Positions 1 to 15,093 of a stretch of 19,777 nucleotides of DNA are shown one piece after another. Source of the stretch: a virus (lineage: Duplodnaviria; Heunggongvirae; Uroviricota; Caudoviricetes). Location of the stretch: the IMG/VR virus record IMGVR_UViG_2850808358_000001. The stretch is one strand, 5' to 3'. Below the pieces are notes generated by a model. That model did no database searches, was not told the origin of the DNA, and saw nothing but the letters and a program-made list of their open reading frames with translations. The number at the start of each line of letters is the position of its first letter. The first letter of the stretch is position 1. A program made the position numbers and the translations under genes.

Positions 1-303
1 ATGAGCAGAAAAACCCAACGTTACTCTAAAGAGTTCAAAGCCGAAGCTGTCAGAACGGTTCTTGAAAATCAACTTTCGATCAGTGAAGGCGCTTCCCGAT
101 TATCCCTTCCTGAAGGCACTTTAGGACAATGGGTTACCGCCGCCAGAAAAGGGCTCGGTACTCCTGGTTCCCGCACGGTGGCTGAACTGGAATCTGAAAT
201 TCTGCAACTGCGTAAGGCGTTAAATGAAGCTCGCCTTGAGCGAGATATATTAAAAAAAGCAACAGCGTATTTTGCACAGGAGTCGCTGAAAAATACGCGT
301 TAA
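1..303 (+). CDS. IS3-family transposase OrfA (HTH DNA-binding part)
   Basis: 100-aa [23 protein letters not shown]...; typical IS3 OrfA with HTH and leucine-zipper-like C-terminus; A7G slippery run at 252..259 near its 3' end. Confidence 0.9.
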   Translation: MSRKTQRYSKEFKAEAVRTVLENQLSISEGASRLSLPEGTLGQWVTAARKGLGTPGSRTVAELESEILQLRKALNEARLERDILKKATAYFAQESLKNTR

Positions 304-338
304 TCGAACAATGGCGACAACAATTTCCCATTGAAGCG

Positions 339-1157
339 ATGTGTCAGGTATTTGGTGTATCCAGGAGCGGTTATTACAACCGGGTACAGCATGAACCCTC
401 AGACAGAAAACAAAGTGATGAGCGGCTAAAACTGGAGATTAAGGTGGCACATATCCGCACTCGCGAAACATATGGAACCCGGCGGCTCCAGACGGAGCTG
501 GCAGAGAATGGCATCATCGTTGGTCGTGACCGACTGGCACGTCTTCGTAAGGAGCTAAGGCTACGCTGTAAGCAGAAACGCAAGTTCAGAGCGACTACGA
601 ACCCGAACCACAATCTGCCAGTTGCGCCAAATCTGCTGAACCAGACGTTCGCTCCTACAGCACCAAATCAGGTCTGGGTGGCGGACCTGACGTATGTTGC
701 CACACAGGAGGGATGGTTGTACCTCGCTGGCATCAAAGATGTTTATACGTGCGAAATTGTCGGCTACGCCATGGGAGAGCGCATGACAAAAGAGCTGACA
801 GGTAAAGCCCTGTTTATGGCGCTCAGGAGCCAGCGCCCACCTGCCGGGCTAATCCACCACTCTGATCGAGGTTCACAGTACTGCGCATACGATTACCGGG
901 TCATACAGGAGCAGTTTGGTCTGAAAACATCAATGTCGCGTAAAGGTAACTGTTACGACAACGCTCCGATGGAAAGCTTCTGGGGAACGCTGAAAAATGA
1001 GAGCCTGAGCCACTATCGTTTTAATAACCGGGATGAAGCCATCTCAGTAATACGGGAATACATTGAGATTTTCTACAATCGTCAGCGTCGTCACTCTCGT
1101 CTGGGGAATATCTCCCCGGCAGCCTTCAGGGAAAAATATCATCAGATGGCTGCTTAA
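339..1157 (+). CDS. IS3-family transposase OrfB (DDE catalytic domain), probably made as an OrfAB fusion by -1 frameshift
   Basis: 272-aa ORF; the -1 frame is open from the A7G motif (252..259) into this ORF; the ...HHSDRGSQY...YDNAPMESFWGTLK... region fits a DDE integrase-type core. Confidence 0.9.
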   Translation: MCQVFGVSRSGYYNRVQHEPSDRKQSDERLKLEIKVAHIRTRETYGTRRLQTELAENGIIVGRDRLARLRKELRLRCKQKRKFRATTNPNHNLPVAPNLLNQTFAPTAPNQVWVADLTYVATQEGWLYLAGIKDVYTCEIVGYAMGERMTKELTGKALFMALRSQRPPAGLIHHSDRGSQYCAYDYRVIQEQFGLKTSMSRKGNCYDNAPMESFWGTLKNESLSHYRFNNRDEAISVIREYIEIFYNRQRRHSRLGNISPAAFREKYHQMAA

Positions 1158-1200
1158 AAAAAGAACAAATGGTAGTGTCCGCTATTGCCAGTACACCTCA

Positions 1201-1320
1201 AAGTGCAAGCTGGTTCTTTAGTTTTGTTACTTCTTCAAGTTCAGTGAACACCCCGGACTTAATTAAAGCGTTACGAGCGATTGTCTCTTTCATTCTCGTT
1301 GTTAAGCGGATTGATGACAT
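1201..1320 (-). pseudogene. 5' portion of a hypothetical phage gene, 3'-truncated by IS600 copy 1
   Basis: ATG at 1320..1318 preceded by GAGAGG SD; reading frame MSSIRLTTRMKETIARNALIKSGVF... runs straight into the IS terminus, which supplies the stop codon. Confidence 0.4.
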
Positions 1321-1499
1321 ATTAATTCCTCTCAAATAAGTGGTTTGCTGCCTGATTTCATTTTCTGGCGACCAACACAAGTCACCCCCATTTCACTGCG
1401 TGGCTTGCGGTAGTAAAGATTGTGCCTGTCTTTTAACCACATCAGGCTCGGTGGTTCCTTCACTTTCCACAGTCAAAGGAAAGGAAGGTTCAGCGGCTG

Positions 1500-1916
1500 C
1501 TATTGAGGTGCTGGAAGTTCAGAAACCGATTTATCAAATGCTTTTCGCTCACGTGAAATAGTTTCTGCCTGATTAATCATTACCTGAGCCTGCTGGCGAA
1601 CAGCTTCACTGGCAGGCTCTTTTGTTAAGAGCTGTGTAAAACCCGCGATAATGTTGCTGGCTAACATCTCAAACCGTTTTTTCTGAATATCTCTTGATTC
1701 TTCATCAATTGGTGGTTCACTATTGCTTAGTGCCGTTACATATACGCGAATTGCCGCTGACCGGACATCATCAGGAAGATGATCAAATGTACTGGCTCTT
1801 GTTTTTACAAGTTCGACAATATTTGCCTTCTTAATATCTTCAGTTTTTTCATCAAGTACTGAGATAAAATTTTTTACTGATGCTTCTAATAACGCTTCTA
1901 ATTTATTTAAATCCAT
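1500..1916 (-). CDS. hypothetical early-left protein (138 aa)
   Basis: ORF MDLNKLEALLEASVKNF...; GAGG SD 8 nt upstream of ATG at 1916; lies directly downstream of the N-like gene; no family recognised. Confidence 0.5.
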   Translation of the reverse strand: MDLNKLEALLEASVKNFISVLDEKTEDIKKANIVELVKTRASTFDHLPDDVRSAAIRVYVTALSNSEPPIDEESRDIQKKRFEMLASNIIAGFTQLLTKEPASEAVRQQAQVMINQAETISRERKAFDKSVSELPAPQ

Positions 1917-1918
1917 AA

Positions 1919-2302
1919 TTACCTCGCTGTCAGTTGTTTTGATTTCCGGTAGCCTGCCGCGTAAATGGCTACGTTTGGAAGACATACACCAGTTTCTGGT
2001 TGCTTATGTCCAAACTCATTCGCGTACACAATGGCCGCTCGCTCCAGATTGCGTCTGTATTCTTTCTGTTGCCAGATCACGTCCTGTGCCATGAACTTAA
2101 TTGGCTTAGCGTCTTCTATGCGCTCAGGCGTTTCGTGAGTACCTTTAGCCTGAATCTGCGCTCTGCTTAGAGTAGGGCGGTGTAATACTTCTGAACTTAT
2201 TGCTTCTTCGCGGGCCAGCACGCCGTTAGCTAATGCCTTTGCCTTTAAACGCTCACGACGACGAGAACGTGAATTGCCTTTGAACTGAGTTCTGCGTGTC
2301 AT
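1919..2302 (-). CDS. N: N-like transcription antitermination protein (P22 gp24 type)
   Basis: Arg-rich N-terminus (MTRRTQFKGNSRSRRRERLK) resembling an arginine-rich RNA-binding motif; C-terminus ...IYAAGYRKSKQLTAR resembles P22 gene 24 protein as I recall it; AGGAGG SD 6 nt upstream; nutL boxB sits 165 nt upstream. Confidence 0.7.
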   Translation of the reverse strand: MTRRTQFKGNSRSRRRERLKAKALANGVLAREEAISSEVLHRPTLSRAQIQAKGTHETPERIEDAKPIKFMAQDVIWQQKEYRRNLERAAIVYANEFGHKQPETGVCLPNVAIYAAGYRKSKQLTAR

Positions 2303-2467
2303 ATAGACCTCCTGATGAACTTTGGTGGTGTGGTAGGTGGGAGACCCATTTTGACCTGTTTCGGCCTACTTCAATTCGGCAATAGTCCCGCAGGCCTCGC
2401 CGCTTTACGTGCGACATATTCCCGTCCATGAACCCTTCACCACACCCCAAAGTTCACTTTGGTTATT

Positions 2468-2482
2468 GCGCTTTGTCAGCGC
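2468..2482 (-). promoter_or_regulatory. nutL boxB hairpin
   Basis: Minus strand reads GCGCTGACAAAGCGC, a 5-bp stem with GACAA-type loop, between OL/pL and N; same core as the nutR boxB at 5291..5305. Confidence 0.7.
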
Positions 2483-2553
2483 CGTAGATTCATATTCGAA
2501 TCGTTGTATATTCACCGCCCTGGTGAGTAGTGCGTCCTGCTGATGGCTTAAAG

Positions 2554-2640
2554 ATAACCTAGGTTATAGCGGCGGTCAATAACTTAATTTATGGATTCTG
2601 ATAAATAAGTTATAAGTGATGGATAATAAAGGTATTTTAT
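2554..2640. promoter_or_regulatory. OL operator cluster / pL promoter region
   Basis: Palindrome ATAACCTAGGTTAT (2554..2567) plus related ATAA-rich repeats; same ATAAC-N4-GTTAT architecture as the OR sites at 4929..4991. Confidence 0.5.
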
Positions 2641-2751
2641 TTTTGTAAATGTTGCGGATTGGTCGGTATTGGAAGGGGGGCGCTGTATTGCTGGCGTGTT
2701 GGTTCGTGGTTTACCGCATTTGCGGCTGTTAAATATGGGGGACGATCGCGA

Positions 2752-2790
2752 GGCAAAGAAAACCCGGCGCGGAAGCCGGGTTTGAGATTT
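2752..2790. terminator. bidirectional intrinsic terminator-like hairpin
   Basis: CCCGGC-GCGGAA-GCCGGG hairpin (2763..2780) flanked by A-run on one side and TTTGAGATTT on the other; follows the stop of the 44-aa ORF on the - strand. Confidence 0.5.
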
Positions 2791-2798
2791 AGTTATTT

Positions 2799-2933
2799 TC
2801 AGCAGCTCGGATAAGAGCGGAAGTGCTGACGAACATGTTCGAGCTCACCGAAACGTATGCGGCAGTAACTGCGCACATAAACCGGCTTGTCGTGTTCGTA
2901 GATGAAGTCATCGCGATTAACATCGTGAGCCAT
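2799..2933 (-). CDS. small hypothetical protein (44 aa, His/Cys-containing)
   Basis: Not in the ORF track (below 60 aa); ATG 2933 with AGGAGA SD 6 nt upstream; translation MAHDVNRDDFIYEHDKPVYVRSYCRIRFGELEHVRQHFRSYPSC; followed by a terminator. Confidence 0.45.
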   Translation of the reverse strand: MAHDVNRDDFIYEHDKPVYVRSYCRIRFGELEHVRQHFRSYPSC

Positions 2934-3082
2934 AGCTTTTCTCCTGTTTTTGTATACAGCCTGTTTACCCGAACAGGTTGTAGTTTGTTGGGAGAACCGC
3001 TATCCTTGGCTTGCGGTTGCCAAGGGTGTAGCGGTAGGTAATCCTCCATACACTTCGGAAATACTGGATATATTTCCGACCC

Positions 3083-3117
3083 AAAAAGCCCCGTTCCCTC
3101 GGGGCTTTATTCTTTTG
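3083..3117. terminator. bidirectional rho-independent terminator
   Basis: GCCCCG-TTCCCT-CGGGGC hairpin (3088..3105) flanked by AAAAA upstream and TTTATTCTTTTG downstream; abuts the stop codon (3107) of the 177-aa gene. Confidence 0.6.
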
Positions 3118-3640
3118 TTCCGCCATCAATCATCGCAAAAGATTCCACAATCAGACTGATACGCTTGGCTTCATCTTTTGTCAGGTCGCGAGGCAGGTTG
3201 CCAATGGTGACGATAAGATCTCCGCGCAATGGAATCGGCAGTTCAAATGTTTTTACACCAACCTGTACGTCAGCTACCGCCTTCTTCTTAGGTGCCATCT
3301 TTTTACGCTCCTTTTTTTTATTTACATCACCAACTGACACATTAATCTCACCATTCTGGTAGGAGATAAATTTATCAATAGCACTTTGCATTCGGCTTTT
3401 GTATGCCTGCAAAGATGATTCAGAGGGTTTGCTTTCTGCTGAGTCTGCGTACGAACTTGCTAAGTTGGCAACGCTATAATCACGGATATCGGCATCGGTG
3501 AAATCCGACCCAAGAACAGTAAGAAGGCGCAGGGAAGAGTCACGGAGATTGCGGGCTGTAGCATCATTGACGATACCAAGCTCAGGAAGCATCTGTAAGA
3601 AGTCCTGAAATGCTTTGATGGTGTAGCTTTTGGTTTGCAT
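3107..3640 (-). CDS. hypothetical protein (177 aa) in the cI-linked accessory slot
   Basis: ORF MQTKSYTIKAFQDFLQMLPELGIV...; two segments separated by a Lys-rich linker (KKKERKKMAPKKKA); no family recognised. Confidence 0.6.
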   Translation of the reverse strand: MQTKSYTIKAFQDFLQMLPELGIVNDATARNLRDSSLRLLTVLGSDFTDADIRDYSVANLASSYADSAESKPSESSLQAYKSRMQSAIDKFISYQNGEINVSVGDVNKKKERKKMAPKKKAVADVQVGVKTFELPIPLRGDLIVTIGNLPRDLTKDEAKRISLIVESFAMIDGGTKE

Positions 3641-3667
3641 AAAAAAGCCTCATACAGTTGATGAGGC
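3641..3667 (-). terminator. hairpin plus U-tract immediately upstream of the 177-aa gene; the 3' arm contains its SD
   Basis: Minus strand GCCTCAT-CAACTGT-ATGAGGC followed by TTTTTT and then ATG (3640); the GAGG in the 3' arm is the only SD-like sequence for this gene. Confidence 0.4.
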
Positions 3668-3829
3668 AATACTAATTTGATCGTCAAAACAAATCAAGAC
3701 CCAAGAAACGATCGTTGATTCCTTTCTTTGTGACAATACAGTCAAATCAAGTTTTACAAGGATTACTTTTCTTCGATTACATTAAAGGCCGCACTTCTGC
3801 GACCATCCATCACCAAAATGTCTCTTCAC

Positions 3830-4171
3830 TCATCCGAAGAAGCAGCAATCCGGGTCAGCACGCACAAGCTCAAGCGCATCAGTCAGCGAAAGTTCAGTAC
3901 TGTACTGATGCCATTTCATATCCTTCCGCATCCAATAGATTTTCCATCTATCCAGAGAACGTATGTACTTGATTCTTGCTGATGGCAGGATGTTTGTTTC
4001 ACCTGGGTTGCCCTGCCACACGGGGCGCTGTTCGCCGATATCTATCGTTTGGTCATTGATGCTATAAACAATATCCAGTTCATTGCGGATATGTTCAGGC
4101 GGCCTTATGCTTTCAATGAATTGGTGAACTTCTTTTTTGACCGCTTGATATTCAAGGTCAGTGAACGCCAT
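3830..4171 (-). CDS. hypothetical protein (113 aa) immediately downstream of cI
   Basis: ORF MAFTDLEYQAVKKEVHQFIESIRPPEH...; starts 38 bp after the cI stop on the same strand, so probably co-transcribed with cI; followed by an imperfect hairpin (3788..3805). Confidence 0.6.
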   Translation of the reverse strand: MAFTDLEYQAVKKEVHQFIESIRPPEHIRNELDIVYSINDQTIDIGEQRPVWQGNPGETNILPSARIKYIRSLDRWKIYWMRKDMKWHQYSTELSLTDALELVRADPDCCFFG

Positions 4172-4208: not shown

Positions 4209-4916
4209 TTACCAGCTATGCGATGACCAGAATACTCTGCCAATAATCCTTACGGTTTTATGAAATTCATCTCTATCCATTACTTCATCCGGGTACTCTT
4301 CGCGATTTATTGATCTGATTATCACCGATGTAGGAGTGGCGATTAATGTTTTTACTCGCAACAAATCAGACTGGCAAATAGCGTAGGTTTTACCATCTCT
4401 GATGGTGGTATCTTGTGTGTTAACACCAACAACATCGCCATCGTGAAGAGTTGGTTCCATGCTTTGACCTGTTACCCTTACCAGCTTGGCAGAACTTTCA
4501 GTTACCCCCATCTTTTTCAGATAGTACTTTCTGAAAACCAAAGAGAACTCTGATGATTCTTCTATCTCGCAGCTACCGCTTCCAGCCGAAAGCGAAACGT
4601 TAAGAAGAGGCAATGCGACAAACTCGTCATCGTTTTTTTTAATGTCTTCCCATACCACAGCTTTTAAAGATGACTCACGGATATTGGATGGTTCTTCATG
4701 TGTACCATCCCTCATTTCACCAATACCAGAACTAAGCCATTCAGGGCGTACTTTTAAAGCATTAGCTAACTCAACCATCTTGCGAGATCCGTTTGTTTTA
4801 CCGGATGACATCTTCTGTATGGCTGGCTGAGATATTCCAACCATGTCCGCAAGCTGTGATTGCGACACCCCTGCCGATCTCATGGCTGCATTTAGTCTTT
4901 CTGCGAATGTTTTCAT
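4209..4916 (-). CDS. cI: CI-like prophage repressor (HTH plus S24 LexA-like autopeptidase domain)
   Basis: HTH (QSQLADMVGISQPAIQKM), Ala-Gly cleavage site (LSAGSG), Ser nucleophile motif GQSMEPT and downstream Lys; ATG at 4916 with no SD (leaderless-type start); the ORF track begins earlier at a TTG inside the operator. Confidence 0.85.
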   Translation of the reverse strand: MKTFAERLNAAMRSAGVSQSQLADMVGISQPAIQKMSSGKTNGSRKMVELANALKVRPEWLSSGIGEMRDGTHEEPSNIRESSLKAVVWEDIKKNDDEFVALPLLNVSLSAGSGSCEIEESSEFSLVFRKYYLKKMGVTESSAKLVRVTGQSMEPTLHDGDVVGVNTQDTTIRDGKTYAICQSDLLRVKTLIATPTSVIIRSINREEYPDEVMDRDEFHKTVRIIGRVFWSSHSW

Positions 4917-4927
4917 ATCCACAAATC

Positions 4928-5004
4928 TATAACTACGGTTATCCAAAGTAAAATAATAAAGGTTATTGCTATCTTTTATAACTTGGGTTATCCTTGGTTA
5001 TAAG
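4928..5004. promoter_or_regulatory. OR operator cluster with divergent pRM/pR promoters
   Basis: Palindromes ATAACTACGGTTAT (4929..4942) and ATAACTTGGGTTAT (4979..4991) plus related half-sites between divergent cI and cro. Confidence 0.6.
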
Positions 5005-5027
5005 TAATGGCTGAAAGAGGTATGCTC

Positions 5028-5252
5028 ATGAATTTAGTAATTCAACGAGCCTTGAAGATTGTCGGTAGTCAAAAGCGGCTTGCCGACAAGTGTGGTGTAA
5101 CGCAGCCAGCAGTACACAAATGGCTGAAAGGCGGGCAGGTTTCTCCAGAGAAAGTTACCGCCATCGTTAACGCCACTGGAGGGCAGATCAAGGCTTACGA
5201 AATTCGCCCAGATTTACCACACCTGTTTCCAAAACCGAATCAGGCAGCATAA
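5028..5252 (+). CDS. cro: Cro-like repressor (HTH)
   Basis: 75-aa ORF MNLVIQRALKIVGSQKRLADKCGVTQPAVHKWLKGG...; AGAGG SD 7 nt upstream of ATG 5028; divergent from cI across the operators. The ORF track starts at 5007, but that ATG lacks an SD. Confidence 0.65.
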   Translation: MNLVIQRALKIVGSQKRLADKCGVTQPAVHKWLKGGQVSPEKVTAIVNATGGQIKAYEIRPDLPHLFPKPNQAA

Positions 5253-10196: not shown

Positions 10197-10292
10197 ATGC
10201 ATTCAAGGCCTGTAGTTGACGACAACACATATCCGGGGCTATATTCCTCATACGCCAGCAAAATCTGGCGTCGGGATTGAGACCCCGGATGT

Positions 10293-10749
10293 TTACGGAG
10301 CGATATGAGACGCGCCCGCGTCTTTTTTCATATCGTTTGCACAGTCACATTCGCGATTTATGGTGGGCTGTGTGGGGGAGCCGAAACCGATAACCATTTC
10401 TTTGTTGAAGAGACAAAGCGAGCAGGCCAGTCCGATCGCGGTCCAACTGAGCCCCATTTCACGGGATTTTTCGGTAATACCATTCTCCCGATTGCTCCAG
10501 CGTTCCATAATCCAGTGGATCCACTCCTCCTGCTTAGGGAAGAGTAAAAACGGAATGGTCACCGGCAGGCCATAATCAATATTACGCGGGTCCGTTGTCA
10601 TGCCCCAGCCGATAATGAACTGAGCCGGGTTGGTACGGTAAAACTGTTTTAGTGCAGGCAATATTTCAGGATTCTGGCGAATGCGCTGTAGGCGTTCCAT
10701 CCGCCATTCAAAAACCATCTGGTAATCAGGATGTTTAAAATCGAAGGGT
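10293..10749 (-). pseudogene. large terminase subunit, N-terminal ATPase portion only; split by IS600 and 3'-truncated
   Basis: Frame ...[15 protein letters not shown]...[20 protein letters not shown]... resembles the N-terminal ATPase region of P22-like TerL; continuous in frame with the 6 codons at 12014..12030 across IS600 copy 2; stops after ~150 aa where a full TerL would be ~450-500 aa. Confidence 0.65.
10308..10328 (+). terminator. intrinsic terminator-like hairpin with T5 tract on the + strand
   Basis: AGACGCG..CGCGTCT stem followed by TTTTT; lies inside the 3' end of the truncated terL reading frame, suggesting foreign junction sequence. Confidence 0.45.
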
Positions 10750-14937: not shown

Positions 14938-15013
14938 TGGTGCTGGTTAACGGACTTGAACCGCTACCCATTCGCTTACAAGGCGACTGCTCTACCATTA
15001 GAGCTAAACCAGC
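14938..15013 (-). tRNA. phage-encoded tRNA, anticodon read as UGU (tRNA-Thr), CCA encoded
   Basis: Manual fold of the minus strand: acceptor GCUGGUU/AACCAGC, D-arm GCUC/GAGC with GG loop, anticodon loop CUUGUAA, T-arm with UUCAAGU loop, 3' ACCA; one non-WC pair at the top of the anticodon stem. Confidence 0.6.
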
Positions 15014-15018
15014 ATATT

Positions 15019-15093
15019 TGGCGGGACAGCGTGGACTCGAACCACGATAAGAAGGTTAACAGCCTTCCGTAATGACCTTTATACGACTGACCC
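15019..15093 (-). tRNA. phage-encoded tRNA, anticodon read as GUU (tRNA-Asn), CCA encoded; may be degenerate
   Basis: Manual fold: T-arm CGUGG-UUCGAGU-CCACG perfect, anticodon stem GAAGG/CCUUC perfect with loop CUGUUAA; acceptor and D stems each carry one mismatch. Confidence 0.5.

Follow-up and report, generated by a model that had tools for sequence, protein, structure and literature searches.

Can a reading frame of only 44 codons, placed between two transcription terminators of a prophage, be a gene, and if so, which transcript reaches it and what might its product do? The question is raised by a stretch of 19,777 nucleotides (nt) of a tailed virus (IMG/VR record IMGVR_UViG_2850808358_000001, the whole of which is called the window in the following), which we identified as a lambdoid, Shiga toxin (Stx)-phage-like prophage of Escherichia coli. 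A sequence-only reading had pointed to an open reading frame (ORF) at 2799..2933 on the minus strand with a Shine-Dalgarno (SD) sequence AGGAGA at 6-nt spacing, and had taken it for a self-contained mini-cistron that encodes a possibly metal-binding peptide and is missed by standard annotation. The ORF is indeed present at these coordinates (ATG 2933-2931, TGA 2801-2799, 44 codons), and its SD at 2945-2940, which extends to the A at 2939 as AGGAGA(A), is separated from the ATG by the 6-nt spacer AAAGCT. We are highly confident that this ORF encodes a genuine small protein, which is already listed in databases without an assigned function, and that it forms the terminal cistron of an accessory cassette between the repressor gene cI and the left operator OL, with a conserved structured leader before it and the terminator of the immunity-side transcript after it.

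The assignment as a real gene follows from a match to a PHROGs family, from existing annotation, from a low ratio of nonsynonymous to synonymous substitution rates (dN/dS) and from a third-position bias. The 44 amino acid (aa) peptide matches phrog_21154 from end to end (E 1.9e-31), its residues 1-44 covering positions 1-47 of the 47 in the profile, and searches of Pfam, NCBIfam and PADLOC with it gave no match. The ORF is annotated by PGAP (WP_000929756.1) and in the GenBank entry of phage SH2026Stx1, and its family is held in PHROGs, so that it has not escaped standard annotation as had been supposed; it is the divergent homologue of the Sakai type which, by contrast, either lacks an annotation or has one in the wrong frame or on the wrong strand. 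When 11 distinct alleles of enterobacterial prophages are compared in pairs, dN/dS amounts to 0.02-0.11 at a dS of 0.17 to >2, the variable sites fall on codon positions 1/2/3 as 9/7/31, and no conserved ORF was found in the other five frames. In ~70 related loci the frame recurs with its start codon and with the flanking terminators, of which a strong upstream one is lacking in the Sakai clade, and both ATG and frame are kept in 29 distinct module variants. Inspection of relatives for frameshifts and stop codons, which had been named beforehand as speaking against a gene, hence revealed a frame that is kept under strong purifying selection.

The surroundings of the ORF place it in a well-known interval of lambdoid genomes. 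Proceeding leftward along the minus strand, the window has the order right operator OR, cI, DUF3024 gene, 177-aa gene, terminator, spacer, 44-aa ORF, terminator, OL and N (Table 1). Repeats of the type TATAAC-N4-GGTTATC at 2553-2571 and 2609-2635 are of the same kind as those between cI and cro (4928-5023), and it is by this match to OR that we identify OL. Since OL lies just downstream, the 44-aa ORF sits in the cI-OL accessory ("rex") slot; it lies between cI and the operator in the orientation of the former, and a terminator separates it from OL. The described position between two terminators and immediately upstream of OL is thus borne out by the stems and the operator repeats. In lambda, the cI-OL interval is occupied by rexAB and timm, and in phage 933W by stk. 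Phage 434 carries hex at this place (PMC3564112). The segment 2700-3120 is 100% identical in two RefSeq E. coli chromosomes, O39:NM F8704-2 and FDAARGOS_944. The F8704-2 locus with the identical small ORF has lambda-type O/P replication genes and the window has a DnaB-like helicase; both prophages are therefore mosaics with a common immunity cassette.

Table 1. Coordinates of the cassette, its RNA elements and the neighboring genes in the window
Feature	Position	Strand	Remarks
cro	5007-5252	+	
cI	4209-4946	-	HTH_3 and Peptidase_S24 domains
DUF3024 gene	3830-4171	-	directly after cI; PADLOC candidate defence family PDC-S43, E 7e-42
177-aa gene	3107-3640	-	phrog_2602
Upstream terminator/attenuator	3083..3117	-	overlaps TAA of 177-aa gene; plausibly bidirectional
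Leader hairpin H2	3056..3078	-	CGGAAAUA...UAUUUCCG; 100% of cells paired; A-U to G-C compensation in 4 distinct sequences
Leader hairpin H3	2996..3035	-	outer stem ACCGCUA:UAGCGGU, inner stem CCUUGGC:GCCAAGG; from RNAalifold and pair counts
Anti-SD UUCUCC	2991..2996	-	pairs with SD GGAGAA 2939-2944
Leader hairpin H4	2955..2982	-	inside anti-SD:SD helix; 2 pairs with compensatory change, 96% of cells paired
44-aa ORF	2799-2933	-	
Downstream terminator	2752..2790	-	ends immunity-side transcript just before OL; left edge of cassette
OL operator cluster	~2550-2635		repeats common with OR; context, outside cassette
N antiterminator gene	1919-2302	-	Pfam N_peptide, E 2e-15

Among enterobacterial prophages, the gene that precedes the spacer is regularly found together with the small ORF. 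Its 177-aa product belongs to phrog_2602 (E 5e-79) and is a homologue of Sp5 ORF23/ECs1184/VT2-Sap23, with 40% identity to the Sakai protein. Neither Pfam nor PADLOC contained a match to it, and a sequence-profile search of the PDB came back empty; the N-terminal domain of its AlphaFold2 model (predicted local distance difference test (pLDDT) ~88) weakly resembles integrase core-binding domains (fold search E 0.5), which we take as a lead and not as a finding. Within the gene, an A8 run lies in a Lys-rich linker, with an internal GGAG and ATG (Met116, 3296-3298 (-)) just downstream, and PHROGs keeps a separate family, phrog_36396, for the C-terminal 63 aa. When 76 fetched loci were scanned with hidden Markov models (HMMs) of both proteins, a phrog_2602 gene was found 162-201 nt upstream and on the same strand in essentially every enterobacterial locus with the peptide (~70 loci). 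The same gene pair stands beside different cI, N and replication genes, for example in Sakai, Oslo and SH2026Stx1, and the window shares 98.8% identity with the latter over 2736-3300 until similarity breaks off at ~2736, about 15 nt past the downstream terminator. This linkage amid varying flanks, together with the breakpoint at the terminator, indicates that big gene, spacer, small gene and terminator behave as a mobile cassette. Such a cassette would comprise, on the strand of cI, the phrog_2602 gene (~175 aa), a structured spacer of ~170 nt, the phrog_21154 peptide gene and a terminator. Taking all evidence together, we consider it probable that a mobile accessory cassette of two genes occupies the rex slot, with the small-protein gene as its distal cistron, and that the peptide is expressed in the lysogen at a tightly throttled level.

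Both terminators that flank the ORF are found on the minus strand. The upstream one consists of the stem AAAGCCCCG/CGGGGCUUU at 3085-3108 (free energy (dG) -15.3 kcal/mol) with the U5 tail UUUUUGGG, and on the plus strand the same region yields a dG of -16.3 with the tail UUUAUUCUUUUGUU. The downstream one has the stem AAACCCGGC/GCCGGGUUU at 2760-2783 (dG -16.8 kcal/mol) and the tail UCUUUG, which becomes UUUUCUUUG when the closing A-U pairs are counted; on the plus strand it is followed by the weak tail UUUGAGAUUUAG. Of the claim that both are bidirectional, the upstream half is therefore plausible and the downstream half doubtful. A consensus terminator scanner listed neither minus-strand terminator, an artefact of stems being extended into A/U pairs so that too few U are left, which direct folding resolves. 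In relatives of the window clade the upstream terminator is kept with C-G to U-A compensation, and the Sakai clade has no strong terminator between the 177-aa-type gene and the small ORF; the downstream terminator is conserved in both clades. Judged by its position, the latter would take the role of lambda timm in insulating OL, PL and N.

Between the two genes of the window lies a spacer of 173 nt, and for the 158 nt between positions 3082 and 2925 a folding energy of -60.8 kcal/mol is calculated (z = -7.2; z = -6.9 for the whole segment 2740-3125). We aligned this leader for 12 modules (10 distinct), derived an RNAalifold consensus and compared it with slid-partner controls and 500 shuffles. 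The consensus comprises five helices, namely the upstream terminator, H2, H3, H4 and a helix between the SD and an upstream anti-SD. Overall, its 35 pairs are paired in 95.7% of cells against 35-51% for slid partners, compensatory changes occur at 8 of the pairs, and such pairing or covariation is attained in 0/500 shuffles. The inner stem of H3 is replaced in sequence in relatives with its pairing retained, and the anti-SD covaries with the SD as UCUCC:GGAGA in one sub-clade and UUACC:GGUAA in the other. This anti-SD:SD helix is 85-90% paired, and the extended helix against the ribosome-binding site (RBS) is paired in 85.5% of cells versus 37-51% in slid controls; AUAGC (2999-3003), beside the anti-SD, can furthermore pair with GCUAU (2932-2936) over the start codon. 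Since the divergence of the leader (Jukes-Cantor distance 0.18-0.75) about equals the dS of the ORF while the helices persist, it is the structure and not the sequence that is conserved. In the window allele, the SD is predicted to be fully base-paired, with a probability of being unpaired, P(unpaired), of 0.00. The mean RBS accessibility (-15..+3) of the small ORF is not separable from that of the neighboring genes, and the case for SD occlusion rests on the SD-core values and the covariation instead. The Sakai-type leader is not alignable to that of the window but has the same length (173-174 nt), and its SD, too, is folded so as to pair with a U-rich anti-SD upstream, in a helix that encloses a hairpin. 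The 177-aa ORF is directly preceded by a hairpin as well (GCCUCA...UGAGGC and U6 at 3647-3667 (-)), which includes its SD (GAGG); the predicted accessibility of this SD is likewise 0.00, and both cassette genes are therefore predicted to have occluded ribosome-binding sites.

With a fold as stable as this (z ~-7) and several covarying helices, one may ask if the structured RNA, as a small RNA (sRNA) or a cis element, is the functional product and the ORF incidental. The constraint on the protein, seen in the low dN/dS, the third-position bias and the conservation of the peptide across Proteobacteria where leaders cannot be aligned, argues against this, as does the lack of an Rfam match: neither a gathering-score scan of the window nor a permissive scan of 2650-3200 yielded a family for the leader, and matches to sok, RNAI and leader families stayed far below threshold. 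We regard this explanation as barely credible.

By which transcript the ORF is reached depends on whether it has a promoter of its own, for which the sequence-only reading had proposed a search in 2934..3082. A scan of the minus strand in 2934-3082 found no sigma-70-like promoter, non-consensus promoters being possible, and none of the promoter-like sites, sense or antisense, was positionally conserved across 11 divergent homologous modules. The absence of a conserved promoter on either strand speaks against an autonomous cistron and equally against a type I antisense RNA. The picture of a self-contained mini-cistron was consequently not supported, and the unit does not qualify as a moron, the hallmark of which is an own promoter. 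The small ORF rather seems to be a tail of the cI operon, or of the cassette upstream, that is reached by read-through. Ahead of the 177-aa gene, a candidate weak promoter (TTGATT-N17-TAGTAT at ~3669-3697) was read by eye and lies below the threshold of the scanner. We propose that transcripts from PRM/PRE or from this weak promoter would reach the small ORF by reading through the attenuating terminator at 3083-3117, that occlusion of the SD would further throttle translation, and that the peptide would thus be made at a low and gated level in the lysogen. That its output is low and gated by attenuation and SD occlusion, without a promoter of its own, seems to us the likelier state of affairs.

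What kind of peptide is produced can be judged from its relatives. A second clade, 46% identical to the window peptide and 40-41 aa in length, is found in VT2-Sakai/Sp5, Stx2-1717, YYZ-2008 and as gp51 of Salmonella phage Oslo. A phmmer search against 1.8 billion representatives gave 12 matches with E <= 0.001, mostly further peptides of 34-49 aa, and a profile search returned 113 clusters of 30-75-aa 'hypothetical' proteins across Proteobacteria, with matches in Klebsiella, Yersinia, Pseudomonas, Paraburkholderia, Cupriavidus, Bosea and Caudoviricetes. The family shares the core V-x-V-x2-Y-x-R-x-R-x-G-x2-E-x-V-R-x-H-x-R-S-x-P, in which V18, V20, Y23, R25, R27, E32, V34, R35, H37, R39 and P42 are invariant. 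From an alignment of 10 sequences, AlphaFold2 models a two-stranded basic beta-hairpin (strands 19-27 and 30-38, core residues 19-38; pLDDT >90 for residues 21-40) behind a disordered acidic N-terminus. A fold search with this model retrieved generic hairpin matches only and was uninformative. In composition, 14 charged residues and 4 His are found among the 44 positions, and there is no hydrophobic run.

The initial view that the ORF is an autonomous unit with its own promoter in 2934-3082 and a metal-binding Cys/His peptide can draw on the terminators on both sides, on the residues C24, H33, H37 and C44 of the window allele and on the ADR1 C2H2 finger as the top PDB profile match. Besides the promoter-less spacer, the peptide itself speaks against it. 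Relatives have Glu, Tyr or Thr instead of Cys24 and Asn, Tyr or Leu instead of His33, and Cys44 is replaced by Arg or Asn or is absent, with C-termini ending in VR, NN or HR, so that only His37 of the four putative ligands is invariant. A zinc ribbon or C2H2-like site was therefore rejected, given three variable ligands of four and an AlphaFold2 model with neither knuckle nor helix; the ADR1 match (E 0.32) is not significant, and the Cys positions of the finger are Val and Tyr in the family. We consider an autonomous metal-binder very improbable.

The folded leader and the occluded SD bring to mind a type I toxin-antitoxin system, in which the toxin mRNA would be silenced by its leader and by an antisense RNA ending at the bidirectional terminator 3083-3117. 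The length and structure of the leader, the good predicted plus-strand terminator and the fact that the upstream neighbor could not be deleted in Sp5 (see below) would fit this scheme. The peptide, highly charged and with no hydrophobic or transmembrane segment, does not; nor was a conserved antisense promoter found, and the best sok-like Rfam match reached 16.6 bits against a gathering score of 59, leaving no Rfam antitoxin at gathering score. Such a system is hence highly unlikely here. A type II pair is likewise not borne out by the gene arrangement, as a 173-nt spacer with a terminator separates the genes and each gene stands alone in some loci.

Outside the enterobacterial prophages, homologues of the peptide occur in other settings. 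In Paraburkholderia and one high-GC contig, it lies 238-330 nt downstream of a DUF5343 protein, and these DUF5343 proteins match PADLOC PDC-M34A (E ~1e-5). The Paraburkholderia row (L082-L084, 2041-4451) consists of a DUF5343 gene (240 aa), a gap of 238 nt, a 44-aa peptide homologue and an HNH_5 nuclease gene (402 aa). On a contig of 1.6 kb, a ToxN-like type III toxin gene (PF13958, E 1e-5) is followed after 57 nt by a 37-aa homologue (L077, 486-1105). Still other homologues lie ~170-250 nt downstream of unrelated repressor-type operons, encoding a Peptidase_M78/ImmA-like protein (L091) or HTH_3 and a second gene (L094-L096), the distances in these loci being 177-245 nt, and this placement suggests a general association with the 3' ends of lysogeny or immunity operons.

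The latter arrangement fits what we see as the main rival to a throttled accessory cassette. In this rival, the peptide would come from a generic gene at the end of repressor operons and would stabilize lysogeny by tuning induction or repressor stability, similar to Hex of phage 434, and it would be an effector neither of defence nor of a toxin system. Hex is translated from the PRM mRNA and damps RecA-stimulated cleavage of the repressor (PMC3564112), which provides a precedent in the very same slot. Consistent with this view, homologues follow unrelated repressors (cI/S24 here, Peptidase_M78 in L091, HTH_3 in L094-96), and in L072 the peptide remains beside a lambda cI despite the replacement of the big gene. 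Against it stand the lack of any sequence relation to Hex, several homologues that are chromosomal orphans with no repressor nearby, and the position of the Paraburkholderia homologues between DUF5343 and an HNH nuclease. Homology to the 434 locus was also rejected for the 177-aa protein, phage 434 being absent from its tblastn matches. We judge a regulator of this kind to be rather unlikely.

Published data on the Sakai homologues bear on expression. The Sakai small gene lies at 3471-3593 (+) of our locus L003, corresponding to NC_002695.2 ~1255735-1255857 (-), and is unannotated in RefSeq Sakai; RefSeq VT2-Sakai carries the opposite-strand GeneMark ORF VT2-Sap22 instead. Hücker et al. 2017 list an ORF, XECs114, as MEILNMCVSIIAQGHTANHQPGLHAGFSFPLAQKNT (PMC5597208). 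XECs114 is an out-of-frame ORF (L003 3541-3651) that runs across the final 53 nt of the Sakai peptide gene and across the terminator of that gene. In uninduced cultures in lysogeny broth (LB), brain heart infusion (BHI) and BHI-stress, this region showed RNA values of 452/807/235 reads per kilobase per million (RPKM), ribosome RPKM of 135/88/2.6 and low ribosome coverage values (RCV) of 0.30/0.09/0.01, and the authors' classifier called XECs114 'pseudo' (PMC5597208). In our reading, this signal stems from the real Sakai peptide gene being transcribed and, to a modest degree, occupied by ribosomes. For the upstream gene, Mondal et al. 2016 were unable to obtain an in-frame deletion of Sp5 ORF23/ECs1184, which 'appears to be lethal to the host', and concluded that ECs1184 is probably needed for stable lysogeny (PMC5155283). 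It is one of only two early-region ORFs of Sp5 that were undeletable in their hands (PMC5155283).

Turning to function, three features, namely the predicted twofold throttling, a slot rich in defence genes and a partner that could not be deleted, led us to the tentative idea of a lysogen-expressed module for exclusion or addiction, in which the peptide would be a potent and possibly toxic effector and the ECs1184-like protein its partner or antidote. The defence-rich nature of the slot is apparent from the DUF3024 neighbor, which matches the candidate family PDC-S43, and from a PDC-M63A-like cassette in the cI-OL slot of L072. In this IMG/VR locus (877-3296), an exact lambda-type cI is accompanied by a 192-aa PDC-M63A-like gene and a 309-aa gene in place of rexAB, and the terminator is left as well. 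A more far-reaching version, which we advance as speculative, would make the beta-hairpin peptide, kept in check by the attenuator and the leader that occludes its SD, the effector of an uncharacterised, widespread prophage-borne system. Besides the peptide, this system would include a protein of the phrog_2602/DUF5343 type as sensor or antidote and, in some cases, an HNH nuclease, and it would either kill or arrest the cell on superinfection or addict the host to the prophage.

Several observations weigh against these readings and against the throttled two-gene cassette from which they proceed. First, the pair is not obligate, which counts against an effector with a dedicated partner and makes a strict toxin/antidote model less convincing. 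In the IMG/VR loci L022, L024, L030 and L034, a change of A8 to A7 (3312-3319) shifts the frame of the big gene and leaves the peptide gene intact; the A8/A7 run could reflect slippage, separate expression of the C-terminal domain or a sequencing error. In L072, the big gene is replaced except for its last ~20 codons with leader and peptide gene retained, L025-27 and Yersinia phage YP3 have the big gene but no peptide gene, and several distant peptide genes are orphans in other taxa. Second, the occlusion of the SD is a thermodynamic prediction which is not exceptional among the genes of the window (P(unpaired) range 0-0.48), the SD reaches P(unpaired) of 0.25-0.62 in the CAGGU sub-clade, and the start-codon helix is only partly conserved. 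Third, the expression data come from the region of the Sakai homologue and not from the window allele, and the Sakai footprints, given by the authors to the overlapping out-of-frame XECs114, speak for occupancy and not for the frame. Fourth, the link between phrog_2602 and DUF5343 is weak (hhalign E 0.004-0.03 over ~30 residues of a C-terminal motif only), and the 177-aa protein is matched by neither the DUF5343 nor the PDC-M34A HMM. Finally, in a 2025 RNA-interactome study ECs1184 stayed just below significance (false discovery rate 0.065), and its polynucleotide kinase (PNK) labelling was no better than that of the green fluorescent protein (GFP) control (PMC7618764); ECs1184 is not a strong RNA binder.

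A few further observations concern the relatives and the remainder of the window. Yersinia phage YP3 (L097, 2501-3131) is non-lambdoid, with a gin invertase and a P2/Mu-like tail module; it carries a phrog_2602 gene (73% identity), the first ~70 nt of the leader and the terminator, without the small ORF. Behind the DUF3024 gene of the window lies a terminator-like hairpin (3787-3804 (-)), which is retained in VT2-Sakai (L003 ~2650-2676) and preceded there by an apparently decayed DUF3024 gene, as judged by eye from the sequence. An IS3-family insertion sequence occupies 1-1157 (+) to the left of the N operon (orfA 1-303, orfB 339-1157). Moreover, the window holds a full-length isrK-family Hfq-binding sRNA at 10252-10328 (+) (Rfam RF01394, 70.6 bits) and two minus-strand tRNA genes at 14941-15013 and 15022-15093 (Rfam tRNA, 63 and 55 bits).

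When compared to known systems, the cassette resembles lambda rexA-rexB/timm, 933W stk and 434 hex in lying between cI and OL on the strand of cI with a terminator just before OL. It further shares with rex-slot cassettes that the region of the Sakai homologue is expressed in the lysogen and that the slot is swapped for other candidate defence cassettes between phages. Unlike RexA/B, Stk and Hex, to which there is no relation in sequence or fold, its second gene has only 44 codons, and in the window clade a terminator and a 150-nt structured leader part the two genes; an exclusion role is putative here. With phage morons it has in common that it is a small accessory unit bounded by intrinsic terminators, with homology breakpoints at a terminator and varied immunity and N alleles alongside, whereas the small ORF, for which no own promoter was detected in 2934-3082 or in the 11 homologous modules, acts as the tail of a two-gene cassette. 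The long folded 5' leader, the upstream anti-SD that is predicted to pair with the SD and the very low basal translation that this would imply recall type I toxin mRNAs of the hok, tisB and zorO class, but the peptide is charged and soluble and not a membrane peptide, and no antisense RNA gene was found. Finally, DUF5343 (PF17278)/PDC-M34 loci show the same gene order, similar spacing and a common C-terminal 'FE-P-P ... P-D-T' motif, whereas phrog_2602 misses both models and the window cassette has no HNH_5 gene in third place.

In lambdoid and Stx prophages, genes for exclusion and for the stability of lysogeny, among them rexAB, stk and hex, are kept in the cI-OL slot, and a catalogued but uncharacterised 44-aa gene now emerges as a constrained member of this slot, belonging to a Proteobacteria-wide peptide family and, in the window clade, placed under a predicted two-level control by an attenuator and SD occlusion. 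Its link to ECs1184 provides a testable candidate explanation for an unexplained published deletion result in Sp5: a role of the larger protein as sensor or antidote, if true, would explain why ECs1184 is undeletable from this Stx2 prophage. Should the peptide turn out to be toxic or active in exclusion, the defence and addiction biology of Stx phages would gain a class of very small effectors; otherwise, the peptide would be one more conserved hypothetical small protein.

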